This document shows positions 3,893 through 64,000 of a DNA stretch of 64,000 nucleotides, piece after piece. The notes under the pieces are model-generated. The model saw only the letters and a list, made by a program, of their open reading frames with translations, was not told the DNA's origin and did not search any database. The stretch is from positions 4,956 to 68,955 of the forward strand of contig JAKLEM010000005.1 of the NCBI GenBank assembly GCA_022711655.1. The letters are read 5' to 3'. The position numbers were made by a program, and so were the translations under genes. Positions within the stretch are counted from its first letter, which is position 1; every line of letters starts with the position of its first letter. Source of the DNA: Candidatus Auribacterota bacterium (GTDB lineage: Bacteria > Auribacterota > Ancaeobacteria > Ancaeobacterales > Ancaeobacteraceae).

Positions 3893-5781
3893 GGCACACA
3901 GCTCCTCATCCACAACTCGAGCATGACAAGCGCGAATATCTGATGTCCGAGGTCGTCGCGGCGCATCCGGTGATCGTCGAGAATGGCGCATACCGCGGGA
4001 CGGTTCACATACGCACATATGCGGGCCCCGGGGTCTCGCAGGAGATCGTCGGTGTAACGGCACAGCCCTGTCCGGAACCACTCGTGGACCGGCATCGCGA
4101 ACCCCTGCTTGCGCTGGCGCATGACCAGCTCCGGCAGGGAACCGGCAAACGCTTTTTTAACAATATGCTTGGTCACGCCGTTCTTTATCTTCATGCCGAA
4201 CGGGACCTGGGCGGCGAACTCGACGATGCGATGGTCGAGATAAGGAACGCGCACCTCGAGCGAGTGCGCCATGCTCATCCGGTCGACTTTTTTCAGGTTG
4301 TCGTCGGGCAGATAGGCGGCGGTGTCCACATACAGCATCGCCGACGAATGGTCGACCGCGCCCCGCACTTCGTCGAAATAGCCGCGGATACGGTCGAAAG
4401 AGCAGTAGTCCCCCAGCGCCGCGCGCATGTCGCCGCTATAGAGCGTCCTCCTGGTATCCGCATCGCAGCACGACACCCGCCTGATAAAGCCGTCGCGGTA
4501 ATCGTCGGCGCCGGCATCGGCCGCGCGTATCACTTTTCGCATCAGCGTGCTGCGCCACGGAACAAGCTTGAGCGACCCCGCGACCGCGCGCCTGAACATT
4601 GACGGCAGGAGCCGATAGCGCTCGAGGCGGTGGTTTGTCCGGGTCCAGGAATATCCGGCGAACGATTCGTCGCCGCCGTCGCCGGAGAGCGCCACCGTAA
4701 CCAGCCGCCTGGCGGCCTCCGATACGAGGTACGTCGGCACGAGCGACGAGTCTGCGAACGGCTCGTCGAAATACCCGGCAAGCTTCGGGAGCAGCTCGAC
4801 CATGCGCGGCCGAACGTCGAATTCGTGATGGTCGGTGCGATAACGTTCCGCGACCGCCCTCGCGTAGCGCAGCTCGCTGTAGGGCGAGCCGCCGAAGCCG
4901 ATAGAGAACGTCTTGACCGGCATGGCGACCGCCCGCTGCATCGAGGCGACGACCGTGCTGGAATCGATCCCGCCGCTCAGAAACGCCCCGATCGGCACGT
5001 CGCTGACGAGCTGTTCGCGCACGGCGTCCGACAGAAGCCCGGCGAAACAGGAGGCCAGCTCGTCGTCGTTTGCCCGCGCGTAGGGCGACTCGCGCTGCAT
5101 CTCGTAGTATCGCGACAGCCGCCAGTAGGGCCGCTCCGTCACGCCGCCGTCTTTATAGACAAGCATCCTGCCCGGCTGGAGCGATCGGATATGCCGGTAG
5201 ACGGTATTGGGCCCGGGGATATAGAGGAAGCTGAAATAGTCGTCGATCGACCTCGGGTCTATGTCGCGAGCGACGGCGCCGGACGCCAGTACCGCCTTGA
5301 TCTCGGACCCGAACACGAAGGCGTCGGCGCAGTCGGCATAGTACAGCGGCTTGATCCCCAGGCGGTCCCTCACCAGCACCATCTGATCGTTGCGGCAGTC
5401 GAGCACCGCGATCGCGAACATCCCGCGCAGATGTTCGGGAAAACAGAGCCCGTATTCCTCATAGAGGTGGACGATAACCTCGGTGTCCGTGTTGGTGCGG
5501 AACCGGTGTCCGGAGCGCAGGAGCTCTTCCCGAAGGCCGGCGAAATTATAGATCTCGCCGTTGAACACCACCGCGACGCTTTCGTCCTCGTTGAAGATCG
5601 GCTGATGTCCCGTGACCAGGTCGATCACGGAAAGCCGCTGCATCCCGATCCCGAAACGGGTGCGCGCGTACGCGCCGCTGTCGTCCGGGCCGCGGTGGCG
5701 GATAGTCGCCATCATACGCCTGAGCGTCTCGGCGGGAACCGCGCCGCCGCGTTTGTCTATAAGACCGCAGATACCGCACAT
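3889..5781 (-). CDS. asnB: Asparagine synthase (glutamine-hydrolysing) family amidotransferase, probably polysaccharide-associated
   Basis: N-terminal MCGICG with Ntn Cys2 (start revised to 5781), plus HRGPD, FNGEIYN, FLSGGIDSS, LSGDGGDE and KVDRMSMAHSLEVRVPYLD. Confidence 0.92.
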   Translation of the reverse strand: MCGICGLIDKRGGAVPAETLRRMMATIRHRGPDDSGAYARTRFGIGMQRLSVIDLVTGHQPIFNEDESVAVVFNGEIYNFAGLREELLRSGHRFRTNTDTEVIVHLYEEYGLCFPEHLRGMFAIAVLDCRNDQMVLVRDRLGIKPLYYADCADAFVFGSEIKAVLASGAVARDIDPRSIDDYFSFLYIPGPNTVYRHIRSLQPGRMLVYKDGGVTERPYWRLSRYYEMQRESPYARANDDELASCFAGLLSDAVREQLVSDVPIGAFLSGGIDSSTVVASMQRAVAMPVKTFSIGFGGSPYSELRYARAVAERYRTDHHEFDVRPRMVELLPKLAGYFDEPFADSSLVPTYLVSEAARRLVTVALSGDGGDESFAGYSWTRTNHRLERYRLLPSMFRRAVAGSLKLVPWRSTLMRKVIRAADAGADDYRDGFIRRVSCCDADTRRTLYSGDMRAALGDYCSFDRIRGYFDEVRGAVDHSSAMLYVDTAAYLPDDNLKKVDRMSMAHSLEVRVPYLDHRIVEFAAQVPFGMKIKNGVTKHIVKKAFAGSLPELVMRQRKQGFAMPVHEWFRTGLCRYTDDLLRDPGARICAYVNRPAVCAILDDHRMRRDDLGHQIFALVMLELWMRSCVP

Positions 5782-5855: not shown

Positions 5856-8264
5856 TTACTGTCCCTTGCCTATCTCCTCGAGTATCCTGCGCGCCTCATC
5901 CGCGCCGTCGAAACGGCTCGATCTCGACAGCGCATCGCTCAACAGCTCGCGCGCCCTGTCGCGCTCGCCTTTCTTGAAGTACGCCAGCCCCAAATGATAG
6001 ATATAGACCGGGTTCTGCGCTTCGCTGTCGACCGCCTTCCGGAAACGCGCGATCGCCTCGTCGTAGTCCCCTTTTTGCATGAAGACCCATCCCGCGGTGT
6101 CGACGATGCGCGGCAGGCCGTTGCTCTCGTTCTCGGCCCTGACGGCGAGCTCGACCGCCCGGTCGAGCCGGGTGCCGGATTGCGCATACAGCCAGGCGAG
6201 GTTGTTGGCGGCGATGTGGTCGAACTGCAGAGACAGGGCGCTCTCGTAGCGCGCGATCGCCTGGTCGACCTTGCCCAAAGAATGGTAGATCTGCGCGGAG
6301 GTCATGAGGGCCTCGACGTTCTTGGGCTGAATGCGGAGGATCTCCTCGGCCTGCTCGAGCGCGTTGACCTCCATCCCCTTCTCGGCGTACGCCTTCATGA
6401 GATAGAGGCGCGCGGGCACGGACCGCGAGTTGAGGTCGAGCGCTTTCTCGTAAAAAGCCTGCGCGCTGTCTTTCTTTCCGACCGTCGCCAGCACCTTTCC
6501 GGCGACTTCGTAGATGCGCGGGTTCGTCGTGTGGACACGCAGCATCTTGTTGCAGAGCCTGATCGCCTTGTCGTAATTGCGCGTCTTCATGTATATCCCG
6601 ACCAGGGCGTAAAAAGCGTTCACATAATTGCTGTCATGCCCCAGCGCCTCGATATAATACGTCACGGCCTTCTCGAGGTTCTTATTCTTGTGCTCGATCA
6701 CCCCGCGGTAGAAATAGGCGTCAGGCTTCTCCGGAAAATCGAGGATGATACGATCAAGCTGCTCGATAGCGGGGCCGAAATCGCGCTGGGCCGTCACCAC
6801 GCGCGCCGCGTTCAGGCGCGCCTTGTAATTGTTCGGCTGGAGGGCGAGCGCGCGCTCGGCCTCGTGCTGCGCTTTTTTCAGTTCGCCCATCTTGAGATAG
6901 GTACCGACAAGCTCGATATGCGGGTCGAGAACGCGGGAATTGATCCGTATCGCCTCTTTGAACTCTGCAGCCGCCTTCTCATACGAACCCGAGCCTGCGA
7001 GCATCCTTCCGAAGATCAGACGGGTAAGCAGATGGTTCGGGCGCAGCTTGATCGACTGTCCGATATCCTTCATTGCCGCATCGAGCCGGCGCCGCCTGAA
7101 ATTGAATATCGCCCGCATCATAAGCGCGTCGGGATCATCCGGCGCCTGCTTGACAAACGATTCGATATACGGCTCGGCCTCGGTGAGCTTGCCCCGGAAC
7201 ACGAGCATGTTACAGATATTCTTCAGCGCCTTGAGGTAGGCGGGGTCCGCATCGTACGCCTTCTTATGCATCGCCATCGCGTTGTCGAAATCGTTTTTGT
7301 ACGCATAGCAGTCGCCCAGGATCGAATATATGATCGGATTGTTCGGCATGCAGGCGGAGGCCTGGGTGAACAACTCTATCGCCTTGTCATACTCCTTGTC
7401 ATACAGATAGGTGTTCCCGAGCTTGAAATAGACCTCGCCGGACATCTTGTCTTTCTCAAGCGCCCGTTCGTAATGCGCCCGGGCCTTCTTGACATCCTGC
7501 AGGGTGATGCTGATATCGCCCATGAGCACGTTGGCTTCGTATCCCGCCGGGTCATCTTCGTAGACCTTCTGCGCGCTTTTCAGCGCGCCCCTGGCGTCGC
7601 CGGAATAGAGCATCGTCTTTGCCATTGCCAGGTCTCCCGCGACCGCGCCTGCGGCTGGTGCGGCCGCCGCCGGGGCCGGCGTATCGGATGGCTGGTCGGA
7701 GGCCTGCTGTTGAGCGCTCAAGAGCTGCTTTATGGCATTGAATTTCAGCTTGACCGCGGCATCCGACGGATTGAGCAGTACGCACCGGTAGAGCTCCTGC
7801 GCCGCCTCGTGCAGGCGCCCCAGATGGATGTACGTCAGCGCCAGCTGGTAATGGGCTTTGAGGTAACGCGGGGCCAACTGCACGGCGTTCTTGCACTCGA
7901 TGAGGGCCTCATGGTATTTCTCGTCGTCGAAATACGCCTTCGCTCTCTCGTAAAAACGGCCTGCGCGCTCTTCCCTCGTCGGCAATAACCTGTAGACGGC
8001 CGCCGCGGCGCCGGCGATGACCGATCCGCACACCAGCGCGGCGATGCCGTACCGAACGAGGGAGGGCAGCCGCACAAAGCGCGCGCTGACGCCGTTGTAG
8101 ATCAGAATGGCCCCTTTGGCCGCAAAGCCGTACGCCTTTTTCGGGTACCGGGCGACAAGGGACATCCGATGGAGGTGATAATTGACAAAGACCTTAAAAT
8201 GATACGACAACGTACGGGTCGTTCTCCTGGCGTTCTGCCGCATCTTTTCGTATAGTTCGTTCAC
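5856..8264 (-). CDS. Large TPR protein, PrsT-like and exosortase-system associated, with an N-terminal TM anchor
   Basis: One hydrophobic segment (YGIAALVCGSVIAGAAAAVY) is followed by more than 15 TPR-like repeats. C-terminus ANNLAWLYA...DTAGWVF...YHLGLAY is typical of PrsT-like proteins. Adjacent to epsI and the exosortase. Confidence 0.8.
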   Translation of the reverse strand: MNELYEKMRQNARRTTRTLSYHFKVFVNYHLHRMSLVARYPKKAYGFAAKGAILIYNGVSARFVRLPSLVRYGIAALVCGSVIAGAAAAVYRLLPTREERAGRFYERAKAYFDDEKYHEALIECKNAVQLAPRYLKAHYQLALTYIHLGRLHEAAQELYRCVLLNPSDAAVKLKFNAIKQLLSAQQQASDQPSDTPAPAAAAPAAGAVAGDLAMAKTMLYSGDARGALKSAQKVYEDDPAGYEANVLMGDISITLQDVKKARAHYERALEKDKMSGEVYFKLGNTYLYDKEYDKAIELFTQASACMPNNPIIYSILGDCYAYKNDFDNAMAMHKKAYDADPAYLKALKNICNMLVFRGKLTEAEPYIESFVKQAPDDPDALMMRAIFNFRRRRLDAAMKDIGQSIKLRPNHLLTRLIFGRMLAGSGSYEKAAAEFKEAIRINSRVLDPHIELVGTYLKMGELKKAQHEAERALALQPNNYKARLNAARVVTAQRDFGPAIEQLDRIILDFPEKPDAYFYRGVIEHKNKNLEKAVTYYIEALGHDSNYVNAFYALVGIYMKTRNYDKAIRLCNKMLRVHTTNPRIYEVAGKVLATVGKKDSAQAFYEKALDLNSRSVPARLYLMKAYAEKGMEVNALEQAEEILRIQPKNVEALMTSAQIYHSLGKVDQAIARYESALSLQFDHIAANNLAWLYAQSGTRLDRAVELAVRAENESNGLPRIVDTAGWVFMQKGDYDEAIARFRKAVDSEAQNPVYIYHLGLAYFKKGERDRARELLSDALSRSSRFDGADEARRILEEIGKGQ

Positions 8265-8281
8265 GTTGCTCCTCTCAATCG

Positions 8282-8932
8282 TTAGCCCGCTTTTCGGAGG
8301 ATCTCGGTCACATACGTATCGATCTGCCGGGCGAACTGCTCAAGCGCCGCGACTGTTTCTTCGACCGAATCCGACACCACCGGTGACGATATCCTGACGA
8401 CGGTCAGGTCCGACCGCCGGAACACCATCCTGTTGACGATATCGATGAGGCGCTGCCGTATGCCGGGCGTCATCCGGACATCCCGTCTCGTCACCAGGTA
8501 AAAAACCGTGGCCAGCCGCTGGTCGTTCTTCCTCATCAGCATGACACGCGCGCGAAAGGCGCCGCCGTCGTCCGGCGCGATGTCATACTGCTGCTCGATG
8601 CTCCACCCCGACCCGATGTAGCAGTATATCGGGAGGTGGTACTTGTAGTTCGGGGTCTTCTTCACGCTCGGGCAGCGCGTCAGGTACACCGTTACGGGAG
8701 CGCGCCCCGGGCGCTCGTATTCACGGTACAGTATGTCCGACGCGTAGATCCTCTTTGTCAGATCGGGAACCGTATCGTCTTTGATATCGCGCCCTTTCCA
8801 ATCCCCGATCGCGTACGGGATCGTCGAGAAATCGGTGTCGCCGGGGATCCTTTCCGGCACATACGTGATAAACGCCGAGACAAGCGCCGTGATGACCATG
8901 ATAGCGACCAGCGGATAGTACCGTGCTTGCAT
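8282..8932 (-). CDS. epsI: EpsI family exosortase-associated protein
   Basis: N-terminal TM followed by IPYAIGDWKG, REY...VTVY, HLPIYCYIGSGW and VVRISSP. Start revised to MQARYY at 8932. Lies directly downstream of the exosortase. Confidence 0.8.
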   Translation of the reverse strand: MQARYYPLVAIMVITALVSAFITYVPERIPGDTDFSTIPYAIGDWKGRDIKDDTVPDLTKRIYASDILYREYERPGRAPVTVYLTRCPSVKKTPNYKYHLPIYCYIGSGWSIEQQYDIAPDDGGAFRARVMLMRKNDQRLATVFYLVTRRDVRMTPGIRQRLIDIVNRMVFRRSDLTVVRISSPVVSDSVEETVAALEQFARQIDTYVTEILRKAG

Positions 8933-8937
8933 AGCGG

Positions 8938-9792
8938 TCACGCCTTCGTCCTGCTCAACAGATTCATGACAAACTGCACCCCGAACATCCCCGACACGCC
9001 GATGACGATGACAATCGCGGTACCCAGCATCGTATGCAGCATGCCTTGCGCGTATTCCATTCCATATGTGTGCGCGATGATACCGGTCAGCGCGATCCGG
9101 ATCACGTTTGAAAGGACGGCGATCGGTATGGCGGACAGGAAGAGGACGCCGCGGCCGAGCGGTTTTTTCTGAAAGAAATAGGCGAACGCCGCGGCGACGG
9201 CAAGCAGCGATATCAGCGATCGCATGCCGCTGCACGCGTCGACGACCTCCACGCTCGTCTGAGGAAAGAACAGGTTCACCCCTTCGCGGTAGACCGGGAT
9301 GCCCGTCAGCCGTATCAGGTGCGCGGCTATCCTCGAGGCGAATATCTTCATCGGTGAAGAAAACGCCTGATAGGCCGCCTCAGGGATCGGAACGGCGAAG
9401 AGCAGATAGCTGACGGGAAAGATCAGCTCCTTCAGCAGTCCCCATCCGTAGACGAACCATACGGCGCCGGCAAGTATGATGATGAACGATACCTGGCGAA
9501 AATAGATGATACTCGCGGCCGTCCCGACGAAATAGAGCAGGATGCCCGCCAGGAACAACAGGATGTCCTTTGCCGACGGCTGCGGAGGGTCCTGCTGGAG
9601 ATACTTCGTGAGCAAGTCTTTTTTCAGGAAGACGATATACAGCGAAATGAACGGGATCGCCATGCAATGCTGGTTGTTCTCGTTCTTGTAAACGTCTTTG
9701 AGCCAGTCGGGCAGGACCGGCAGCATCAACAGCACCAGCACTGCCAGAAAGATGAACGGCATGTAGCGGCTTATCTTCGGAGCGTTATCCAT
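8938..9792 (-). CDS. epsH: Exosortase (EpsH/Xrt family)
   Basis: Polytopic membrane protein with HCMAIPFISLYIV, YLLFAVPIP, catalytic VVDACSGMRSL, NVIRI and LHT. Start probably MDNAPK at 9792. Confidence 0.9.
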   Translation of the reverse strand: MDNAPKISRYMPFIFLAVLVLLMLPVLPDWLKDVYKNENNQHCMAIPFISLYIVFLKKDLLTKYLQQDPPQPSAKDILLFLAGILLYFVGTAASIIYFRQVSFIIILAGAVWFVYGWGLLKELIFPVSYLLFAVPIPEAAYQAFSSPMKIFASRIAAHLIRLTGIPVYREGVNLFFPQTSVEVVDACSGMRSLISLLAVAAAFAYFFQKKPLGRGVLFLSAIPIAVLSNVIRIALTGIIAHTYGMEYAQGMLHTMLGTAIVIVIGVSGMFGVQFVMNLLSRTKA

Positions 9793-54775: not shown

Positions 54776-56080
54776 TCAGCAGTACAGCGTGACAGCCGTG
54801 GCCCTTCTCACTTCTTTCACGATACTTTTGCCCGCCAGTGCCGCAGCGTCTTCGAGAACAGCGATCTTGTTTTGCCGCGTCCTGCCGGTCATGCGCGCAG
54901 GATTACGCTTGCTTGCGCCTTCGACCAATATCTCTACTTGCGACCCGACAAGCGCCTGATTCTTTTCCGCGCTGATCTTCTCCTGAAGCGCGAGCAGCGC
55001 CTGGTTTCGCTCCTCTTTCACCTTCAGAGGCACGTCATCGGTCCTGCCTGCCGCTGCCGTCCCCTCTCTCGTCGAATACTTAAAGATATATGCGCTATCA
55101 TATGCAATCAAGCGCATTACCTCAACCGTTTTCTGGAAATCATCTTCGGTCTCGGTCGGATACCCAACGATGATATCGGTGCTCAGCGCGATCCCCGGAC
55201 ACCTGTCGCGCAGCTTCGCGACAATATCCAGGTAATGCCCGGCCGTGTATTTCCTGTTCATCAGGGAGAGGATCCTGTCGGAACCGGCCTGGATCGGAAA
55301 ATGTAAATACTCGCACAGTTTTGGCAATTGGCCGAACTGCGCAATGAGCTCTGCGCTGATATCTTTCGGGTGCGACGTAACGAAGCGGATCCGCTCGATG
55401 CCGGCAATATCGTTCAAGTGTTCGAGCAACCGCGGGAACGTCGCCTTTGTGTCGCCAAGCCCCTTTCCGTACGAATTGACGTTCTGTCCAAGAAGCGTCA
55501 CCTCTTTGCACCCGCCGTCGGCAAGCCGCCGCACCTCAGAGACAATATCTTTCAACGGCCTGCTCACTTCTCTGCCGCGCACGTACGGAACGACGCAGTA
55601 TGAACAATAGTTGTCGCATCCGCGCATGATCGGCACCCACGCCTTAAGCATACCTTCACGCACCGCGACCGATTGGTCGACCGGATACTCGTCCATGACG
55701 GAGACGTCGATCAGGTACTCGCGGTTTTTGCGGGCCTGTTCGATCAGTTCAGGGATCCTTCTTATCTGCTGTGTCCCGCAGACGAAATCGAGAAAGGGCA
55801 GCGTCTTGAAGAGCGCCTCCTGATGCTTCTGCGCCATGCACCCGCAAAACCCGAGAATAAGCTCCGGCCGCTTCGCCTTGAGCTTCCCCAGTTCCCGCAT
55901 CTTCCCGATCGCCTTGTTCTCCGCCGAGAGGCGAACCGAGCATGTGTTGAGGATGATGACATCCGCAGCGTCTTCGCGATCCGTCGGCGCATACCCGGCA
56001 GCAGCGAGAAGCCCCGCCATCACCTCGGAATCAGATTCGTTCATCTGGCAGCCAAAATTTTTTATATAAACTTTTTTCAT
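54776..56080 (-). CDS. miaB: tRNA-2-methylthio-N6-dimethylallyladenosine synthase
   Basis: FGCQMNESDSE, LNTCSVR, radical SAM GCDNYCSYCVVP, LLGQNVNSY and a TRAM domain. The first 10 codons are AT-rich and supplied by the inserted element. Confidence 0.98.
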   Translation of the reverse strand: MKKVYIKNFGCQMNESDSEVMAGLLAAAGYAPTDREDAADVIILNTCSVRLSAENKAIGKMRELGKLKAKRPELILGFCGCMAQKHQEALFKTLPFLDFVCGTQQIRRIPELIEQARKNREYLIDVSVMDEYPVDQSVAVREGMLKAWVPIMRGCDNYCSYCVVPYVRGREVSRPLKDIVSEVRRLADGGCKEVTLLGQNVNSYGKGLGDTKATFPRLLEHLNDIAGIERIRFVTSHPKDISAELIAQFGQLPKLCEYLHFPIQAGSDRILSLMNRKYTAGHYLDIVAKLRDRCPGIALSTDIIVGYPTETEDDFQKTVEVMRLIAYDSAYIFKYSTREGTAAAGRTDDVPLKVKEERNQALLALQEKISAEKNQALVGSQVEILVEGASKRNPARMTGRTRQNKIAVLEDAAALAGKSIVKEVRRATAVTLYC

Positions 56081-56123
56081 ATCTCATTAATTATAAACAA
56101 GATGCAATCCTGTATAATACTGT

Positions 56124-56585
56124 CTAAAACTGCTCAAAAGATGAGAAACTGGAATCGATCCCTTTTTGTACCGCATATTTCCATTCCATGAGTTTCTCTA
56201 TGTCATTAACTGTAAAAACCGGATAATTTCTGTAATCACGCTTTGGTTTAACCCAGCCTTTTTGCATCCAGTAATATATCGTCTGTCGATGAACTCTCAA
56301 AACTACCGCTGTCTGTGTTAAGTTGTATCTTTTGCTTTTATCAGCTTTCTTGTCGCACTTGCGAAATATCTTCTTATCATTATCATCTATCTGCCGCTCT
56401 ATCTCCTCCTTCTTTTCTATTTTCTCGGCCAACTTTCTCGCCTGATAGCACTGACGGAAATAGGCAAGCATTTCGATGCCCTTCTCAAAACGCTGCTGCT
56501 CTTCACTGCCATACGGATAAACAGTAACGATATCCCAACTGTCATTGCGGACGACCAGATCTTTGTTCTTCCTCTCAAAGATCAT
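56124..56585 (-). CDS. Small protein with a C-terminal MerR/excisionase-like HTH, unit 1
   Basis: YNLTQTAVVLRVHRQTIYYWMQKGWVKPKRDYRNYPVFTVNDIEKL fits a winged HTH of the MerR/Xis type; N-terminal half unknown. Confidence 0.7.
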   Translation of the reverse strand: MIFERKNKDLVVRNDSWDIVTVYPYGSEEQQRFEKGIEMLAYFRQCYQARKLAEKIEKKEEIERQIDDNDKKIFRKCDKKADKSKRYNLTQTAVVLRVHRQTIYYWMQKGWVKPKRDYRNYPVFTVNDIEKLMEWKYAVQKGIDSSFSSFEQF

Positions 56586-57708
56586 TTCTGTCAGTTCCCG
56601 GCCAGATCAGGTCGTAGCAAACGCTGCGTCCCTTGCCTGGCAGTTGTCGCAAGACTTTTTTCTCCAGCATATCCGCGATCTCGCGGAATGCGGTCGCGCG
56701 GCTGGTACGCGTCATACTCACATATTTTCGCGTCGTCAGGCCGCCTTCGAAATTGCCGATACCGGCTTCAAGGATCCGATTTATGACCTTCTTTTGCCGC
56801 TCGTTCAGCTGTATCTGGGCATGCTGGTTCCAAAAATCGGCTCGCATTAACACGCTGACAATAATATCCCTCGAATGTTCGATGGACGCCGTAACGCACG
56901 TTATAAACCATAGAAACCATTCCGTCACGTCGAGGCGGCATCTCTGAACTTTCTCGATGATCGAATAATACTCCTCGCGCACTCGCATGATCTCCGAAGA
57001 AACGCTGTAAAACCTGACAGTCAATTTCTCGTCCTGAGCCAACGCCATGTCAGTCAGCGCCCTTGCCAATCGGCCATTCCCGTCTTCATACGGATGTATC
57101 GTCAGAAATCGCAGGTGAGCTGCCGCAGCACGCAGTATACCGTCCATGTGTCTCGAAGAGGATACATTCCACCATTCGAGGAAAAGCCGCATTTCTTCAT
57201 CAAGGCGGTCCTTCGGTAAGGCTTCGAAGTGGATCTTCTCCCTTCCTACCGGGCCGGATATGACCTGCATCGGTTCATTGCCTCGAAGAGCGCCCGTCGC
57301 GATCTTTGTTAAGCCGGAATAACCGGTTGGAAACAACGCCGCATGCCAGGCATTCAGCCGTTTCAGCGTCAGCGGCTTTTCATGAGCGCGAACGGCATCC
57401 AGCAGCACATCCACAAGCCCGTCAATGTTCCTGTCGTGCGGGCCGACACCACGAGGAAGGCCAAGATTTACCGCAACGGATGATCGGACTGTGTCGCGAT
57501 TGAGGCGCTGCCCTTCGATCTCGGCGGTACGCACCGCCTCCTCGACCAGGACGGCTCCCTGCGCCTCGGTCTCGAGTTTGATATCAAGAGAGGAAACGCG
57601 GCCCAACAGTTTACCCTGCAGGATCCGTAGCTGGCTGAGCGGTTTCAGCAAAGCCGCTTCATCATATTTGAAATCAAACCAGTTCTTCCGTTCCCAGATG
57701 TATTTCAT
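56575..57708 (-). CDS. Fic family protein (DUF4172-type N-terminus, class II), unit 1
   Basis: Canonical Fic motif HPYEDGNGRLAR, inhibitory-type motif TAEIEG and a C-terminal HTH (SRATAFREIADM). Start revised to MKYIWERK at 57708. Confidence 0.92.
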   Translation of the reverse strand: MKYIWERKNWFDFKYDEAALLKPLSQLRILQGKLLGRVSSLDIKLETEAQGAVLVEEAVRTAEIEGQRLNRDTVRSSVAVNLGLPRGVGPHDRNIDGLVDVLLDAVRAHEKPLTLKRLNAWHAALFPTGYSGLTKIATGALRGNEPMQVISGPVGREKIHFEALPKDRLDEEMRLFLEWWNVSSSRHMDGILRAAAAHLRFLTIHPYEDGNGRLARALTDMALAQDEKLTVRFYSVSSEIMRVREEYYSIIEKVQRCRLDVTEWFLWFITCVTASIEHSRDIIVSVLMRADFWNQHAQIQLNERQKKVINRILEAGIGNFEGGLTTRKYVSMTRTSRATAFREIADMLEKKVLRQLPGKGRSVCYDLIWPGTDRNDL

Positions 57709-57925
57709 CTCTCGAGTCTCCGCTGAAGCGATTAAGCATCGTAATCGCTTCACTATTTGATACGATTATAACTCTAAAGGTTCCGTGAAGCAAGCATTAT
57801 TAACAAACAAAGTAAAAGCGGCAGATAGATACGTATCTGCCGCTCTGTCCGTCACTCATATGTATTATAGACTCACAATCGCCCTAGCAATCCTCTCCAT
57901 AGTCGTGCTATACCGCATCCATCGG

Positions 57926-57958
57926 TCAGCCAAAATTTTTTATGTATACTTTCTTCAT
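57926..57958 (-). pseudogene. miaB: Spare miaB 5' replacement fragment (MKKVYIKNFG*) carried by unit 2
   Basis: ATG AAG AAA GTA TAC ATA AAA AAT TTT GGC TGA versus functional ATG AAA AAA GTT TAT ATA AAA AAT TTT GGC TGC: three synonymous and no non-synonymous changes before the junction. Confidence 0.8.
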
Positions 57959-58001
57959 ATCTCATTCAGCCTAAACAAGATGCAATCCTGTATAAAACTG
58001 T

Positions 58002-58463
58002 CTAAAACTGCTCAAAAGATGAGAAACTGGAATCGATCCCTTTTTGTAACGCATATTTCCATTCCATCAGTTTCTCTATGTCATTAACTGTGAAAACCGG
58101 ATAATTTCTGTAATCGCGCCTTGGTTTAACCCAGCCTTTTTGCATCCAGTAATATATCGTCTGTCTATGAACGCTCAAAACTACCGCTGTCTGTGTTAAG
58201 TTGTATCTTTTGCTTTTATCAGCTTTCTTGTCGCATTTGCGAAATATCTTTTTGTCATTATCATCTATCTGCCGCTCTATCTTCTCCTTCTTTTCAATTT
58301 TCTCGGCCAACTTTCTCGTCTGATAGCACTGGCGGAAATAGGCCAGCATTTCGATGCCCTTCTCAAAACGCTGCTGTTCTTCACTGCCATACGGATAAAC
58401 AGTAACGATCTCCCAACTATCATTACGGACGACCAGATCTTTGTTCTTTCTCTCAAAGATCAT
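58002..58463 (-). CDS. MerR/excisionase-like HTH protein, unit 2
   Basis: 153-aa paralogue of 56124-56585 with about six substitutions. Confidence 0.7.
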   Translation of the reverse strand: MIFERKNKDLVVRNDSWEIVTVYPYGSEEQQRFEKGIEMLAYFRQCYQTRKLAEKIEKKEKIERQIDDNDKKIFRKCDKKADKSKRYNLTQTAVVLSVHRQTIYYWMQKGWVKPRRDYRNYPVFTVNDIEKLMEWKYALQKGIDSSFSSFEQF

Positions 58464-59586
58464 TTCTGTCAGTTCCGGGCCAGATCAAGTCGTAGCAAAC
58501 GCTGCGTCCCTTGCCTGGCAGTTGTCGTAAGACTTTTTTCTCCAGCATATCCGCTATCTCGCGGAATGCGGTCGCGCGGCTCGTGCGCGTCATACTCACA
58601 TATTTTCGCGTCGTCAGGCCGCCTTCAAAATTGCCGATACCGGCTTCAAGGATCCGGTTGATAACTTTCTTTTGCCGCTCGTTCAGCTGTATCTGGGCAT
58701 GCTGGTTCCAAAAGTCGGCTCGCATCAACACGCTGACAATAATATCCCTGGAATGTTCGATGGACGCAGTGACGCACGTTATAAACCATAGAAACCATTC
58801 CGTCACGTCAAGGCGGCATCTCTGAACTTTCTCGAGGATCGCATAATACTCCTCGCGCACTCGCATGATCTCCGAAGAAACGCTGTAAAACCTGACAGTC
58901 AATCTCTCGTCCTGAGCCAAAGCCATGTCAGTCAGCGCCCTTGCCAATCGGCCATTCCCGTCTTCATACGGATGTATCGTCAGAAATCGCAGGTGAGCTG
59001 CCGCTGCACGCAGTATACCGTCCATGTGTCGCGAAGAGGATGCATTCCACCATTCGAGGAAAAGGCGCATTTCTTCATCAAGGCGGTCCTTCGGTAAGGC
59101 TTCGAAGTGGATCTTCTCCCTTCCTACCGGACCGGATATGACCTGCATCGGTTCATTGCCTCGAAGCGCGCCCGTCGCGATCTTTGTTAAGCCGGAATAA
59201 CCGGTTGGGAACAACGCTGCATGCCAGGCATTCAGCCGCTTCAGCGTCAGCGGTTTTTCATGAGCGCGAACGGCATCCAGCAGTACATCCACAAGCCCGT
59301 CAATGTTCCTGTCGTGCGGGCCGACACCACGAGGAAGGCCTAGCTTTACCGCAACGGATGATCGGACTGCATCGCGATTGAGGCGCTGCCCTTCGATCTC
59401 AGCGGTACGCACCGCCTCCTCGACCAGAACGGCTCCCTGGGCCTCGGTCTCGAGTTTGATATCAAGAGAGGAGACGCGGCCCAACAGTTTACCCTGCAGG
59501 ATCCGTAGCTGGCTGAGCGGCTTCAGCAAAGCCGCTTCATCATATTTGAAATCAAACCAGTTCTTCCGTTCCCATATGTATTTCAT
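58453..59586 (-). CDS. Fic family protein, unit 2
   Basis: Paralogue of 56575-57708 with HPYEDGNGRLAR intact and about six amino-acid differences. Start 59586. Confidence 0.92.
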   Translation of the reverse strand: MKYIWERKNWFDFKYDEAALLKPLSQLRILQGKLLGRVSSLDIKLETEAQGAVLVEEAVRTAEIEGQRLNRDAVRSSVAVKLGLPRGVGPHDRNIDGLVDVLLDAVRAHEKPLTLKRLNAWHAALFPTGYSGLTKIATGALRGNEPMQVISGPVGREKIHFEALPKDRLDEEMRLFLEWWNASSSRHMDGILRAAAAHLRFLTIHPYEDGNGRLARALTDMALAQDERLTVRFYSVSSEIMRVREEYYAILEKVQRCRLDVTEWFLWFITCVTASIEHSRDIIVSVLMRADFWNQHAQIQLNERQKKVINRILEAGIGNFEGGLTTRKYVSMTRTSRATAFREIADMLEKKVLRQLPGKGRSVCYDLIWPGTDRNDL

Positions 59587-59803
59587 TTCTCGTATCTCCG
59601 CTGAAGCGATTAAGCATATTATTCGCTTCACTATTTGATACAATTATAACTCTAAAGGTTCCGTGAGGCAAGCATTATTCATACACAAAGTAAAAGCGGC
59701 AGAGAGAAGCGTATCTGCCGCTTTGCCCGTCACTCATATGTATTATAGACTCACTAACGCCTTAACAATCCTCTCCATAGTCGTGCTATACCGCATCCAT
59801 CGG

Positions 59804-59857
59804 TCAGCCGTAGGTCTTGAGGCAGACTCTGCTATTCCTCAATATGTTTGTGTGCAT
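59804..59857 (-). pseudogene. miaB: Displaced original miaB 5' end (MHTNILRNSRVCLKTYG*)
   Basis: Reads ATG CAC ACA AAC ATA TTG AGG AAT AGC AGA GTC TGC CTC AAG ACC TAC GGC TG|A. Joined at GGCTG to the miaB body it gives V-x-L-K-T-Y-G-C-Q-M-N, the MiaB N-terminal consensus. Confidence 0.75.
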
Positions 59858-59976
59858 GATGTTATGTAATCATTCTTTAGATATTCATCGGATCCTGCAG
59901 ATGAACGAATCCGACCATGGATAAACCGAAGGACTGAGGAAATTATACAACATACCCTGCGAAAAGTAAGGTTATC

Positions 59977-62900
59977 TTATGCGGCATCGCCCATCGTACG
60001 GGTATTCTCCTTAATGCGTTGGATCTCGTCGCCAAGGGGCTTGGGCAGCGGCGCTAATGCCCCTTCCGATAGCGCCTCCATCCCGTTCGCGATCGCATCC
60101 AAGGTCATTTCCATCCCGATGAGAACCGAACGGCTGACACGCTTCGCTTTCACCATACGCTCGCATTGGCAACGCTCGAGCGCAAGCCGCGATGCCATGA
60201 CAACACGGTCCACCATTGCCAGTGCCGCCGCGCGGTTCGGGTGATCTTTTGCTTCGCGTATCTTCGTACGCGCCGCCTCTGCGCCGTCGACCAGCCTGTT
60301 GAGCGCTGCCTCATCGCCGTTCCTGATCACGCGCGCCAGGATCGAAAGCGGTATCCCGCGGCCGCGCCGCCCCCGCCATTTTCCCCCTTCTTCCTTCATC
60401 AGCTCGGCAAAACGGCCCGCATCCGCGACCTGGCCGTATATCTCGAGCGCAATGTCCCCGCGCTCCCACACCACCTTGCCCTTATGCGAGAACTCCGATT
60501 CGGCGGTGCGCCATTTGCCGCTCACCATTTCGCCTGCGGCATCGGCCATTGGAGATAGTTTAACCTCGGCTCCCGTCTTCTCTTCCTTCAGCATCGTCGG
60601 GTCGCAGGTGAGCAGATCGCAGCCGGGGACGTCCCGCGCTTTGACCTTTACGATACTCACGAGCTCACTTTCCAGCATGCCGGCAAAGGGCACGGCCGGA
60701 CGTGAAACATGTATCGCGCTACGGCCGTCTGCGGTCGTCCTGACCCGCACCAGCGCGGCACCGGCAAGCGTGTGTTCATCGCCATCGACCAACAGCATCA
60801 GCCGCTGGTTCCGGTCCGTCAGCACGCTCGCGATGCCCCTCAACTTGCCGATAGACCGTCCCCATACATTTACCGATTCATGTCCTTGCGCGACCCAGCG
60901 CACGTGATCGATGTTCGCCGTCTCATACGCCTTCATCGTGTAGGACTTACCCCATTGTTCGTAATACGGCTTATTCCATGCGTCCCAGAACGCCTCCTCA
61001 CCCATCGACGTTCGATCCCAGCCCCTCGCGCGCCGGCCGCCGTACGTGCCCTTCAGCGACTCCGTTATCGCCGCTTTCAATAGTTTCACTTCCACTTTGT
61101 ATTCGCAGTCCTTCATCACCTGCATCAACCCATACATCCAGTTTATCCGGTCCGGCCGTGATTCGTCTTCCATCTCTTCAGTTGGCGCCACCTTGAACTC
61201 ATTTTTCAACGCGTCCCTGTATGCAACGTCAATCTCCCTAGCCATTGCACCGGCGTCCGCGTACTCCCTCTCGCACAGTTTCGCAAACACATCCTTCTGA
61301 GCGTACGATACCACCATCAGCTTCTCGATCGCGAGCAGCGCATCCCGGCCCTTCATCCCTTCCAGCAGCGCCGCGTTGGCATCAAGGAATGCGGATGCCT
61401 CTTCGCCATGCGCCGACAGGTGCGCCAGCGCCGCGTACAGCCGGCCGATCTCCATATCGCGCTCATTCACGTCTTCGATCGTCATCATCTCGCGCAGGAT
61501 CTTCCTGAGCGCCTCCTTCCCCCCGTCGCCTGCACGCCACGATACCAGCGTCAGCGGCAGCAGCAGGAACCCTTCGAAATCACTCAACTCTCCTTCCCAA
61601 TATACCGCCTCGCGCGCCAACGTCGTATTCTCTTCGTATATGGCCGCAAGTGACGCTTCCAACCCCTGTAACGACATCCGCCACAGCCCCGCATCGGGAT
61701 GGCTGTCCAGCTTCGCCGGAATCGCCAGATCTCCGGCCTCGAAGGGGCTTCGTTCCTCGTCTTGCTCCGCCGCCCGGTTGATATCCTTGACGATCTCGAC
61801 CAGGCCCTTGCCCTTCAGTCCGCTCTCCTGATACAGATACGCGACATCGTTCAGGGCCTCTTGTATCCGCTTGTCTCCTTGCGCAAGTTCGCGCAACGGT
61901 TCCCACGCCATCATCTCCCTCCCGACCCCCAGCCACGGATAATTACCCGCAAGCCCGCGCCTCAGCTCGCTCTCCATCTCGTTGTTGCCGAGGTCGTCCA
62001 TCAGGAACCGGTAGATCATGCCTTTGCCGTCGATGATCTGTTTCAGAATCTCGGCTGCCGACGGCGCCGAGAAGACCTTTTTCAGGAACTCGTCGTCCTT
62101 CATCTTCTCAACCGTGCCGGGAGGATATTTCCCCAGCCACGTCACGTACTCCACTTCCTTCTTCCCGCCCCCGATCCGCAGCGGCCGGTACTCGGCCTGG
62201 TAGAGCTCCGAGTAGGTGAACGGCAGTTCGGCGAACATCACCGTATCCGCACCCGTCAGCGATATCCCCGTCCCGCCGCTGTCGATACCCGCCACCAAGA
62301 CCTTTAAATTACTCTCTTCTTTGTTGAATGCGATCTTGTGAGACTCCTGCGCATCTTCGCTTACGCCGCCGTACATCTTCTCCGCTTTGCCCAGTTTTTC
62401 CTTCTTCAGCCGCTCGTCTATCGCCTCCTGCAGCCGCTCGACCATCCAGCGGTGCTTCGCGAAGATCAGCACCTTCTTCCCCGCCTTCACGCGCGCCACC
62501 ACCGCATCGGCCAGCCTCCCTATCAGCGGCGACTCCCCCTTTCCGCCCACCATCTTCGGGTCGGCCATCGCCTGCAGGATCATCTCCAGCTGGACCATCG
62601 GGTTGAGCCCTTCTATGTCGAGCTTCTCGTCCTCTTTCGTCGTCCGCAACGCGTTATACCTTTCCGCCCACCCCTTGAAATCGTCGATCATCGACTTGAT
62701 GATCTCTACCTGTTCTTCGCTCAGGTCGTACATCCCTTCTTTTTGCGGCTCAATGTCGACCCTCTTAGGCCGCCACGGCGTTTTGCCGTCGCCGTGGAGT
62801 TTCTCGTCGTACTCGGCGAATACCTCGCTCTGGCGGCGGCGAAGCATGACTTTTGCGAGTTTCTGCTTCAATACAACCAGTCCGCCGATCTTCACCTCTC

Positions 62901-64000
62901 CCCGCCCGACGATAAAGTCCGTCTTGAACTTCTCGAACGACCCCTCGTATTGATCGAGGTACGACAGGAGCGAATACAAATGCTCCGGCTTGTCGTGATA
63001 CGGCGTCCCCGACAGGAGCCACCTTCTCTGCGGCTTGATCTGACGTATCGCCGCCGCCTGCTGGACGGTGTCAGACGGGCTGTCCGCCTTCTGCACCTCA
63101 TCTATGATCGCCAGCTCGATCCCCGGGAAGAGATCTTTTATTTCCTGGCTCTTCCGGATTTCCTGTGGGTAAATTGCTTGTAGTAATGACTTGTTCAAAT
63201 CCTTTAGTTCCTGATCAGTAACGGCATTCGCATCGCGCAGATGACTATCTAAGAGCAGTTGCATATCGTCTGACAGTAGAGACTTAAGCTCATCAGTAGT
63301 AACCCTTTCAGGAAAATCACGCATTCGTAAAACATCATTAAATGCTGCTATAAATGCTTCTTCTGAAACCGTAGATAACTGCTCAGTCTTTAGACCAAGT
63401 TTTTCAAGAATGATTATATCAGCTTTCTTATTGTCTTTAAGTGAGTTACAAAGCAATTGAGCGTTTAAATCACCCACTAAAAAGTCAGAAGACCCTATTT
63501 CCTTTTCACTCCTGCCCCGCAGGAACTCGTAATTCACAATGAGGTAGCGCGCTTTTCCCATCCGCTTCGCGAGTGCATCAAACATCTTCGCGTCCTTCTC
63601 CGCCTCCTTCAGCTCATCGCTGTCGACGATGCAGACTTCTTTGTCTTTGCGCCCGGTAAAGTCCTTGATGATGCTCGCCCAGGTCCGTTTCACGCGGTTC
63701 GGTGTGACGATCAGGACTCGCTTGAGATTCAGCTTCTCCGCAGCAGCAACCGCCTGGAACGTCTTCCTCATCCCCTGCTCGTCCGCGAGGATCGCCTTGT
63801 CGTGCCCGGCAAGGAACTGCGCTCCCCTTCTCTCGTACTCCAGCATCTTCGTTTCAAGGCCATTTACCTTGAACGACCGCACCTGCGCATAGTGCGCGGC
63901 TACCTGCTCGCGGATACGCTTGATGAGCTCTTTTTGCTCCCTATCCCCGCCGGCCTTCTGCAGTTCTGCAAGGGCCTCCTCGAATGCCTGTCCCTGGTCC
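59977..64000 (-). CDS. Very large SNF2-family helicase/ATPase-domain protein, 5' end outside the window
   Basis: ILADEQGMRKT (motif I variant), IIDEVQ (II), LLSGTP (III), MLRRRQ, LIFAKH, GTGISLTGA (V) and YQAEYRPLRIG (VI). I checked that the frame is open from 63882 to 64000, so the protein is over 1340 aa. The C-terminal ~650 aa are unrecognised. Confidence 0.85.
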   Translation of the reverse strand, partial: DQGQAFEEALAELQKAGGDREQKELIKRIREQVAAHYAQVRSFKVNGLETKMLEYERRGAQFLAGHDKAILADEQGMRKTFQAVAAAEKLNLKRVLIVTPNRVKRTWASIIKDFTGRKDKEVCIVDSDELKEAEKDAKMFDALAKRMGKARYLIVNYEFLRGRSEKEIGSSDFLVGDLNAQLLCNSLKDNKKADIIILEKLGLKTEQLSTVSEEAFIAAFNDVLRMRDFPERVTTDELKSLLSDDMQLLLDSHLRDANAVTDQELKDLNKSLLQAIYPQEIRKSQEIKDLFPGIELAIIDEVQKADSPSDTVQQAAAIRQIKPQRRWLLSGTPYHDKPEHLYSLLSYLDQYEGSFEKFKTDFIVGRGEVKIGGLVVLKQKLAKVMLRRRQSEVFAEYDEKLHGDGKTPWRPKRVDIEPQKEGMYDLSEEQVEIIKSMIDDFKGWAERYNALRTTKEDEKLDIEGLNPMVQLEMILQAMADPKMVGGKGESPLIGRLADAVVARVKAGKKVLIFAKHRWMVERLQEAIDERLKKEKLGKAEKMYGGVSEDAQESHKIAFNKEESNLKVLVAGIDSGGTGISLTGADTVMFAELPFTYSELYQAEYRPLRIGGGKKEVEYVTWLGKYPPGTVEKMKDDEFLKKVFSAPSAAEILKQIIDGKGMIYRFLMDDLGNNEMESELRRGLAGNYPWLGVGREMMAWEPLRELAQGDKRIQEALNDVAYLYQESGLKGKGLVEIVKDINRAAEQDEERSPFEAGDLAIPAKLDSHPDAGLWRMSLQGLEASLAAIYEENTTLAREAVYWEGELSDFEGFLLLPLTLVSWRAGDGGKEALRKILREMMTIEDVNERDMEIGRLYAALAHLSAHGEEASAFLDANAALLEGMKGRDALLAIEKLMVVSYAQKDVFAKLCEREYADAGAMAREIDVAYRDALKNEFKVAPTEEMEDESRPDRINWMYGLMQVMKDCEYKVEVKLLKAAITESLKGTYGGRRARGWDRTSMGEEAFWDAWNKPYYEQWGKSYTMKAYETANIDHVRWVAQGHESVNVWGRSIGKLRGIASVLTDRNQRLMLLVDGDEHTLAGAALVRVRTTADGRSAIHVSRPAVPFAGMLESELVSIVKVKARDVPGCDLLTCDPTMLKEEKTGAEVKLSPMADAAGEMVSGKWRTAESEFSHKGKVVWERGDIALEIYGQVADAGRFAELMKEEGGKWRGRRGRGIPLSILARVIRNGDEAALNRLVDGAEAARTKIREAKDHPNRAAALAMVDRVVMASRLALERCQCERMVKAKRVSRSVLIGMEMTLDAIANGMEALSEGALAPLPKPLGDEIQRIKENTRTMGDAA

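Follow-up and report, generated by a model that had tools for sequence, protein, structure and literature searches.

Tandem Fic units at codon 10-11 of miaB in an Auribacterota genome look like recombinase-less cassettes of a gene-capture system

Introduction

How could two small, mobile-looking units that lack an integrase have come to lie at the very start of miaB? This question is raised by a locus in a Candidatus Auribacterota bacterium, within a stretch of 64,000 nucleotides of contig JAKLEM010000005.1 (assembly GCA_022711655.1, positions 4,956 to 68,955 of the forward strand), the whole of which is referred to below as the window. A sequence-only reading of positions 56124 to 59586 had described two repeated units, each encoding a Fic protein and a helix-turn-helix (HTH) protein, and had proposed a non-autonomous element, possibly a satellite, that is mobilized in trans. 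Our analysis indicated that the units look like passenger cassettes of an undescribed gene-capture system. They are probably (with a probability of about 0.7) recombinase-less cassettes that were placed by site-specific recombination at the GGCTG sequence of miaB, with a family of large serine recombinases (LSRs) acting in trans.

Labels of the form G### denote the genomes compared (G000 is the window's own genome and G001 belongs to the same family), and labels of the form L### denote the loci or contigs examined. The window's genome is 75% complete, a scope that applies to all genome-wide searches of it reported below.

Results

Tandem units and their junctions with miaB

All of the genes between 50 and 64 kb of the window lie on the minus strand, in the order mutS, a gene for a TGS/uridine-kinase protein, miaB (54776-56080), HTH1, Fic1, HTH2, Fic2 and a giant SNF2-like open reading frame (ORF). 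The synteny of mutS, the TGS/uridine-kinase gene and miaB was conserved in G001. An offset comparison detected two head-to-tail units with a period of 1878 bp (copy 1, 56042-57919; copy 2, 57920-59797) and 12 further repeated bases after copy 2, at 59798-59809. The two copies were identical at 1786 of 1878 positions (95%) and had a GC content of 48% versus ~60% in the surroundings and the host. ORF and Pfam analyses agreed with the sequence-only reading in that each unit contained only one Fic ORF (with DUF4172 and Fic domains, both above the Pfam cut-offs) and one 153-amino-acid (aa) HTH ORF. The junction between copy 2 and copy 1 was spanned in four other assemblies, comprising a contig of 15.8 kb with 99.8% identity that came from a different sample and three short contigs with 100% identity, and the order Fic-HTH-Fic-HTH-miaB was kept in all four; the presence of the same junction in these assemblies excluded an assembly artifact or a strain chimera. 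No tRNA or tmRNA gene that could have served as a target was present within the window, and the cassette region had no Rfam family match, even at an E value of ≤1.

Examination of the unit boundaries revealed three GGCTG cores in direct orientation, each of which was preceded by a miaB-type 5' end. In the gene direction, the junction in the working gene read ...AAAAATTTT GGCTG CCAGATGAAC..., that between the copies read ...AAAAATTTT GGCTG ACCGATGGATGCGG... and that beyond copy 2 read ...AAGACCTAC GGCTG ACCGATGGATGCGG.... This three-way comparison places the crossover necessarily within GGCTG, which, within the conserved GCQMN motif, comprises the Gly codon and bases one and two of the Cys codon. 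The miaB 5' copies carried by the units had a GC content of 7 to 15% versus 60% in the miaB body. The third stub, beyond copy 2, was richer in GC and read in frame as MHTNILRNSRVCLKTYG (SRVCLKTYG) before a stop codon. As its pattern, (R/K)V.(L/I)KT(Y/F)G, is shared with the MiaB N termini of relatives (for example, RKVYIRTYGCQMN in G001), this stub was identified as the displaced native miaB start. The shared GGCTG, the contrast in GC content and the third stub indicated that the units are insertions into miaB and not the products of local duplication alone. The junction structure further implied that the promoter region and the first nine or ten codons (MKKVYIKNFG) of the working miaB are supplied by cassette 1. 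Since every cassette brings a replacement miaB start, insertion would keep miaB intact and push the former 5' end upstream as a dead stub.

Two other observations concern the target gene. Two more methylthiotransferase paralogues are present in the window's genome (C23, 16692-17924; C53, 52356-53486); these are 30 to 35% identical to MiaB and were without the insertion signature. An exact 14-nt inverted copy of miaB codons 12 to 16 (CAGATGAACGAATC) is located on the plus strand at 59898-59911, ~40 nt upstream of the displaced native start, and is preceded by CTG, as at the attachment core. An earlier inversion may have left this copy as a scar, or it could be a native element that takes part in pairing; in the other loci examined, no inverted miaB fragments were detected upstream of the arrays.

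In the gene direction, each cassette consists of a core, a 55-nt conserved arm, a terminator-like hairpin, a promoter-like site, the Fic gene, the overlapping HTH gene and, 43 nt after the stop codon of the latter, a replacement start that supplies 10 miaB codons. The first 38 nt of the two arms are identical, and the arm contains no inverted repeat other than a 5-bp TATAG/CTATG stem. Both terminator-like hairpins have a run of T residues after the stem. Their loops and inner stem bases differ between the cassettes (GCGGCAGATA...TATCTGCCGC versus GCGGCAGA...TCTGCCGC) with the pairing kept, and this retention of pairing despite sequence change suggested that the hairpin is functional. Such a hairpin would insulate the cassette from the displaced upstream miaB promoter, and the cassette operon probably has miaB as its third gene.

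A serine recombinase family at the miaB site

The idea that larger miaB-integrated elements with an integrase might exist in related genomes was borne out, since an LSR family was found at the same codon. The lack of any integrase family directed at miaB, which had been named as grounds for refuting the sequence-only reading, therefore does not apply. In G007 and G017, a protein of 563 to 567 aa with Resolvase, Recombinase and Zn_ribbon_recom domains is encoded immediately upstream of miaB, with its last codons running into the miaB start. When species-representative genomes were scanned, relatives of this protein (49 to 91% identity; 550 to 590 aa) were detected at miaB in at least 20 loci, and the hosts were Omnitrophota, Auribacterota, Elusimicrobia and metagenome-assembled genomes (MAGs) labelled Planctomycetia. 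No phage recombinase in the phage collection exceeded ~30% identity to this family. The gene order in these loci was a short HTH gene, cargo, the recombinase gene and miaB, and GGNTG was again the point at which recombinase units abut miaB, both in G007 and G017 and in more than 20 further loci. The cargo included a defence-like HerA-like ATPase and Ppl-type protein and, as judged by sequence only, restriction-modification genes and HigB-like toxins.

Of 13 loci checked, 11 had recombinase units flanked by 100%-identical inverted repeats of 118 to 208 bp, in which sequence coding for the recombinase C terminus is joined to the miaB start, with the repeat end exactly at GGNTG. The inverted copy ran outward into a conserved, GC-rich, noncoding module of ~365 nt, in which hairpin inserts vary and some pairs covary. 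This module matched no Rfam family, even at an E value of ≤1, and blastn found no match to it in the genome of the window. A second copy of the module (92% identical) was present in G079 and G081, 10 to 18 kb further upstream in direct orientation and fused to an older miaB 5' end, and the module pair enclosed restriction-modification and toxin genes; in L034, the recombinase gene, the core and the module occurred in direct order. The layout with inverted repeats could not be derived from a single attP × attB event and resembles a circle with two inverted sites.

Searches of the window's whole genome detected no Pfam Resolvase match, and tblastn with the recombinases of the relatives found none, in keeping with the earlier statement that the miaB units have no integrase. 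As this genome is 75% complete, a recombinase unit could be present elsewhere in it. A single Phage_integrase match in the genome corresponded to a Xer-like gene beside topA on another contig; Xer-dependent integration of the type used by integrative mobile elements exploiting Xer (IMEX) was set aside, as this lone recombinase gene is far off and the site is not dif-like.

Degenerate recombinase genes were also found at the miaB site. In G001, only the last ~110 recombinase residues remain, directly upstream of miaB, and G020 has a recombinase pseudogene. The G001 locus (L011; C6) contains, at 7514-7821 and 7845-8786, the recombinase C-terminal remnant and then an IS200-like Y1 transposase-type gene, and further on an AbiTii gene, a short HTH gene and another Fic gene at the contig end. 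In G001, which is the closest relative with this locus, the island is decaying and reloading at one site. Single-strand transposition of the IS200/IS605 type was considered because of the Y1-like gene, which was absent from the other loci and was treated as cargo. Separately, L037 contains a fused recombinase remnant made of N-terminal and C-terminal pieces and a 283-bp direct repeat of the recombinase 3' end (1622-2072 and 5691-5761), together with an inverted attachment site, which is evidence of rearrangement inside such arrays.

Arrays of recombinase-less cassettes in other contigs

A junction search was performed for miaB-type N termini followed by a stop codon or Trp. This search yielded 41 distinct junctions of a displaced 5' end with an arm and 31 distinct miaB sites, all of which break at GGNTG and continue with RCC..TGG. 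Direct arrays of two to four sites were observed in six loci (L016, L019, L020, L109, L110 and L111), and the array cargo consisted of toxin-antitoxin, Abi or defence genes; in L016, for example, an AbiE pair was followed by a nucleotidyltransferase pair and an HTH gene. The window-type arm (GSTATAGNNNGACTATGGARAGGAT) was present in 11 metagenome contigs. The single extra match to this arm in phylum genomes (G018, with 2 mismatches) was unrelated to miaB and was treated as chance.

Three contigs connected the recombinase with cassettes. In L112 and L107, the recombinase C terminus and its miaB 5' copy were joined at the core to a window-type arm, and in L029, an intact recombinase unit was followed by cassettes. 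Together, these contigs provide the most direct link of the recombinase to window-type cassettes, and the fusions in L112 and L107 are the only support, an indirect one, for recombination in trans.

The Fic and HTH proteins

The likeliest start of the Fic protein is MKYIW, since close homologues (79% identical) in G021 and G036 begin there; these homologues stand alone, without an HTH gene. The catalytic motif HxFx(D/E)GNGRxxR was present in both copies as HPYEDGNGRLAR at residue 205, with Y replacing F, and the inhibitory motif (S/T)xxxE(G/N) was present in both copies as TAEIEG at residue 61 of the same chain, N-terminal to the Fic core. The protein matched the SoFic profile of PADLOC (E value of 1.9e-41; residues 28-380, profile positions 18-349 of 361), in agreement with the earlier view of Fic as anti-phage cargo. 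Its arrangement of DUF4172, Fic and C-terminal domains with an N-terminal inhibitory motif and a catalytic motif is that of the single-gene SoFic defence. Shewanella SoFic, however, is only weakly similar to the window Fic (the direct sequence similarity to its structure had an E value of 1e-7 and was limited to the core), and the best solved relative is 8cil, a 'Fic family protein'. From these profile and motif matches, we infer that the Fic protein would be an abortive-infection anti-phage payload.

The HTH protein had been read as excisionase-like, an assignment that further comparison did not establish. The C terminus matched MerR_1 (27.9 bits, above the Pfam cut-off of 21.6), and the excisionase-type HTH_17 match was below its cut-off (18.4 bits versus 27). 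An AlphaFold model (mean predicted local distance difference test [pLDDT] score of 84) combined a sheet of three strands with a long helical hairpin and, at the C terminus, a winged helix, and fold and profile searches matched the winged helix to the DNA-binding domains of RacA, GlnR, BldC and the MerR family (template modeling score of 0.65 to 0.77 on the target). No Xis protein was found among the top 50 fold matches; Xis and MerR winged helices are related folds.

Homologue searches detected 152 relatives of the HTH protein, mostly of ~130 aa and from Omnitrophota. In every context examined these lay near miaB, whether directly upstream (L016, L018 and L020), with two genes between (L019) or a few kilobases upstream (G001, G007 and G017). 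The layout of a long HTH gene immediately before a miaB 5' copy recurred in L016, L018, L020, L110 (twice) and L111, and in relatives, though not in the window's genome, a link to the recombinase was seen, with a short HTH form as the first gene of recombinase units in about 20 loci. Unrelated cargo accompanying the family included nucleotidyltransferase pairs, a two-component system with TrkH, and HerA-like and Ppl proteins. In a phylum sample of 79 species, which includes a MAG labelled Candidatus Auribacterota, the HTH gene was present in 5 and the LSR gene in 5, with a common locus in 3 in addition to the G001 remnant. A role for the HTH gene as a conserved host neighbour of miaB was ruled out by its presence in just 5 of these 79 species and its co-occurrence with the recombinase. 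As the family travels with recombinase elements and with unrelated cargo, the HTH gene was assigned to the element and not to Fic, and its product is a putative element-encoded DNA-binding accessory protein. It may bind the TATAG-N5-CTATG repeat of the arm and could act as a directionality factor or as a repressor of the cassette operon. The LSR integrase of phiRv1 uses a small Xis-type DNA-binding directionality factor, which is a precedent for a directionality role of such an HTH protein.

Divergence between the two cassettes

The sequence-only reading had noted about six amino acid changes per protein and many more silent ones, and had taken the divergence to suggest two independent arrivals or long-term selection on both copies, with dN/dS as a check. 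Both copies were intact. HTH1 and HTH2 differed at 20 nt and 6 aa, with a synonymous divergence (dS) of 0.19 and a ratio of nonsynonymous to synonymous divergence (dN/dS) of 0.085, and Fic1 and Fic2 (377 aa) differed at 42 nt and 6 aa, with a dS of 0.147 and a dN/dS of 0.047. The two miaB 5' copies differed at 3 positions, all of which were synonymous; as the equivalent of 4.7 of the 30 sites is synonymous, the probability of this outcome was ~0.004. Since the middle 5' copy is unused at its present place, this pattern fits two lineages, in each of which one copy was a working miaB start as the sequences diverged. Both this synonymous-only divergence and a dS of 0.15 to 0.19 under strong purifying selection favoured two separate arrivals over duplication in place, and the suggestion of two independent arrivals was in this way strengthened.

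Feature coordinates and the neighbouring ORF

The coordinates of the features are listed in Table 1. Upstream of the cassettes, the giant minus-strand ORF occupies 59977-64000 of the window and continues to the contig end (>3100 aa, with SNF2-related and Helicase_C domains). It had weak PADLOC matches to ZorD and DpdE, and 167 bp separate its end from the displaced native miaB start. The same gene (called at 3094 aa) also adjoins the cassettes in L121, an independent assembly.

Table 1. Features of the miaB locus (window positions) and of recombinase units in other loci
Feature	Position	Strand	Basis
Native miaB body, from the third base of Cys11	54776..56048	-	Pfam UPF0004, Radical_SAM, TRAM; ~60% GC
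Junction core 1, GGCTG (Gly10 codon and TG of Cys11), cassette 5' copy/miaB body	56049..56053	-	three-way junction comparison
Replacement miaB 5' end of cassette 1 (ATG 56078-56080, MKKVYIKNF, 7% GC) and 43-nt spacer after HTH1	56054..56123	-	
HTH1, 153 aa: N-terminal beta-sheet, long helical hairpin, C-terminal MerR-type winged helix; overlaps Fic1 stop by 11 nt	56124..56585	-	
Fic1, 377-aa SoFic-type class II Fic (TAEIEG at 61, HPYEDGNGRLAR at 205)	56575..57708	-	Pfam; PADLOC SoFic E 1.9e-41; PDB 8cil E 8.6e-119
Control region of cassette 1: terminator-like hairpin (57815-57846), then TTGCTT-17-TATAAT promoter-like site upstream of Fic1	57709..57864	-	
Arm of cassette 1 (ACCGATGGATGCGGTATAGCACGACTATGGAGAGGAT...), TATAG-N5-CTATG inverted repeat; arm type also in metagenome arrays	57865..57926	-	
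Junction core 2, GGCTG, unused 5' copy of cassette 2/arm of cassette 1	57927..57931	-	junction comparison
Unused miaB 5' copy of cassette 2 (ATG 57956-57958, MKKVYIKNFG then stop)	57932..58001	-	
HTH2, 153 aa, 6 residues different from HTH1	58002..58463	-	
Fic2, 377 aa, 6 residues different from Fic1, both motifs intact	58453..59586	-	
Control region of cassette 2 (terminator-like hairpin 59693-59724; TTGCCT-17-TATAAT at 59671-59643) and arm 2 (59743-59804)	59587..59804	-	
Junction core 3, GGCTG, displaced native miaB 5' end/arm of cassette 2	59805..59809	-	junction comparison
Displaced native miaB 5' end (ATG 59855-59857, MHTNILRNSRVCLKTY, 44% GC) and upstream region to the stop of the giant SNF2-like ORF	59810..59976	-	
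Inverted repeats of recombinase units	L023 126-302 / 4322-4498; L024 1046-1223 / 9477-9654; L028 18-225 / 4905-5112; 8 more loci		
~365-nt module	L024 706-1045; L026 46-385; L027 4421-4760; L030 1-336; L032 5243-5582	-	
~365-nt module, second copies	L119 9142-9501; L120 2096-2462		

Discussion

With no serine recombinase in a 75%-complete genome, the units are best read as non-autonomous, separately arrived cassettes. A miaB-targeting LSR, supplied in trans by a co-resident or transient element, would have inserted both cassettes successively, and copy 1, which adjoins miaB, would be the newer insertion. Each insertion would regenerate a usable target, since the cassette 5' copy resembles the native one, and the cassettes would be immobile at present, as no recombinase was detected in this genome. 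A more extended scheme would have the miaB site host an integron-like gene capture built on an LSR, with a platform unit that contains the 118- to 208-bp inverted copies and the ~365-nt module, with target-copy cassettes, with an HTH protein that sets the direction and with the window Fic cassettes as leftovers after loss of the platform; we regard this scheme as tentative and rather doubtful.

Several results weigh against placement of the cassettes by this recombinase family. As the window genome has no detected serine recombinase, the case for mobilization in trans comes only from other genomes. Beyond the first ~8 bases, the arms of recombinase-bearing units diverge from the window-type arm. 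No single-copy variant, empty site or excised circle was observed among the five assemblies, all of which had the tandem; homologue searches found no near-identical cassette in another genome; and cargo shared between arrays was limited to one weak case (L111 and L120, 83%). Canonical LSRs recombine attP with attB only, and repeated insertion into a hybrid site needs the cassette 5' copy to act as a putative B-type half-site.

The alternatives were assessed against the same junctions and divergence values. A single insertion, followed by generation of the second copy through unequal crossing-over between the junction repeats and divergence of the copies in place, would account for the exact likeness of the two copies in architecture and in the 1878-bp period, as well as for the common 12-bp junction and the identical start of the arms. 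The observed dS would, however, require that 1.9-kb direct repeats co-existed for a long time and neither collapsed nor underwent gene conversion, strong purifying selection has been maintained on the two genes of each copy (dN/dS of 0.05 to 0.09), the unused 5' copy has changed only synonymously (3 of 3) and arrays of related but distinct cassettes are common elsewhere, so that duplication in place is unlikely and the separate arrival of the two cassettes is favoured. Derivation of the units from recombinase-bearing elements by deletion of the recombinase is improbable: such decay does happen at the miaB site, as seen in G001 and G020, but the units retain no recombinase coding trace (43 nt separate the HTH stop from the miaB start, and tblastn was negative), their layout of a long HTH gene before a miaB 5' copy recurs in many independent contigs, and both cassette genes are under purifying selection. 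Spread of the cassettes with no dedicated site-specific recombinase, by way of natural transformation and recombination through homology or microhomology in the conserved miaB sequence, is in our view very improbable. The target is indeed a highly conserved coding motif, both halves of the cassette site are miaB-like (the arm ACCGATGGATG and the gene CCAGATGAACG agree at 7 of 11 positions) and the window's genome has no detected recombinase; against this, all 41 distinct junctions break at the same GGNTG, homologous replacement would leave no displaced native 5' stub, and in more than 20 genomes a recombinase gene is physically joined to the site.

A further alternative concerns the role of the HTH protein only and is compatible with recombinase-less cassettes placed at miaB. 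The HTH protein might be an antitoxin or transcriptional repressor of Fic within a two-gene, toxin-antitoxin-like defence module, a role that we hold to be the lesser but a serious possibility. The 11-nt overlap of the HTH gene with the Fic stop codon suggests translational coupling, the fold is that of MerR-type regulators (GlnR, BldC and RacA) and not specifically that of Xis, and the toxicity of Escherichia coli SoFic is relieved by the antitoxin AS1, a small protein encoded immediately downstream (PMC12249575). The 79%-identical Fic homologues, however, lack an HTH gene, Fic has its own inhibitory helix (TAEIEG) and the HTH family accompanies unrelated cargo while always being tied to the miaB site or the recombinase, and these points weaken the antitoxin or repressor role.

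Recombinase-less cassettes at miaB have their closest parallels among systems that stack elements at one site. SCCmec and the recombinase-less psi-SCC and other elements like the staphylococcal cassette chromosome (SCC) are located at rlmH (orfX) and are moved by the LSRs CcrAB and CcrC. Shared with SCC are the use of one conserved RNA-modification gene as the site, the tandem arrays with repeats of the attachment core, the involvement of an LSR and the presence of recombinase-less members that are thought to depend on a recombinase in trans. SCC enters the 3' end of rlmH without rebuilding the gene, whereas the miaB cassettes enter codon 10-11 and must bring a promoter and a 5' copy; furthermore, the hosts of the miaB system are uncultivated Auribacterota, Omnitrophota and Elusimicrobia, and its cargo consists of defence or toxin-antitoxin modules of 1.4 to 5 kb. 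Integron cassettes and tycheposon arrays (10.1101/2020.12.28.424599) resemble the miaB cassettes in being small, promoter-poor or single-function modules in one orientation at one site, many without a recombinase of their own, and the newest integron cassette lies beside the attachment point, as inferred for the miaB cassettes. They differ in that neither an IntI tyrosine recombinase nor an attC hairpin is present here (the single tyrosine recombinase of the genome is Xer-like) and in that the recombination site of the miaB cassettes is a copy of the target gene 5' end, with arms that are copies of miaB sequence.

Other elements enter the 5' ends of related genes. The LSR of the Bcep22-like phage JC1 mediates insertion within the 5' end of rimO, which encodes a MiaB paralogue; as at miaB, the first ~10 codons of a methylthiotransferase gene are targeted, a new ATG and N terminus are supplied, and the recombinase gene abuts or overlaps the target (PMC9144972). 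JC1 is, however, a complete temperate phage with its own recombinase and rimO as its target, and neither cassette arrays nor recombinase-less passengers have been described for it. Genomic islands with dusA-specific integrases likewise enter the 5' end of a tRNA-modification gene and restore it (PMC4482086), but these are autonomous islands with tyrosine recombinases and another target gene. The proposal of a satellite in the phage sense had no basis. No genes for capsid redirection, packaging or primase/replication functions and no phage-derived integrase, the traits of phage-inducible chromosomal islands (PICI), P4-like satellites and PICI-like elements (PLE), were detected in the units, nor were other phage or helper-related genes, and a recombinase-less array cassette of the psi-SCC or integron kind fits better. 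Within the literature collection searched, no paper linked miaB or Omnitrophota to a serine recombinase. What is new is the combination of a target at miaB codon 10-11, a copy of the target 5' end in each cassette, stacked recombinase-less defence cassettes and the architecture of the recombinase units.

If the reading of the units as cassettes placed by a miaB-targeting LSR is true, it explains why a mobile-looking unit in the window has no integrase. The recombinase loci would offer natural pairs of attachment sites and recombinases whose target, the GCQMN codons of MiaB, is very short and highly conserved, and cassettes of 48% GC in a host of ~60% GC would show how SoFic and other defence genes move from one little-known phylum to another. 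The miaB site would then represent a second, mechanistically independent route to the ordered stacking of small defence or toxin modules at one address, as in integrons and SCC, with stacking driven by an LSR and with the recombination site of each cassette also serving an important host gene as a 5' end in reserve.

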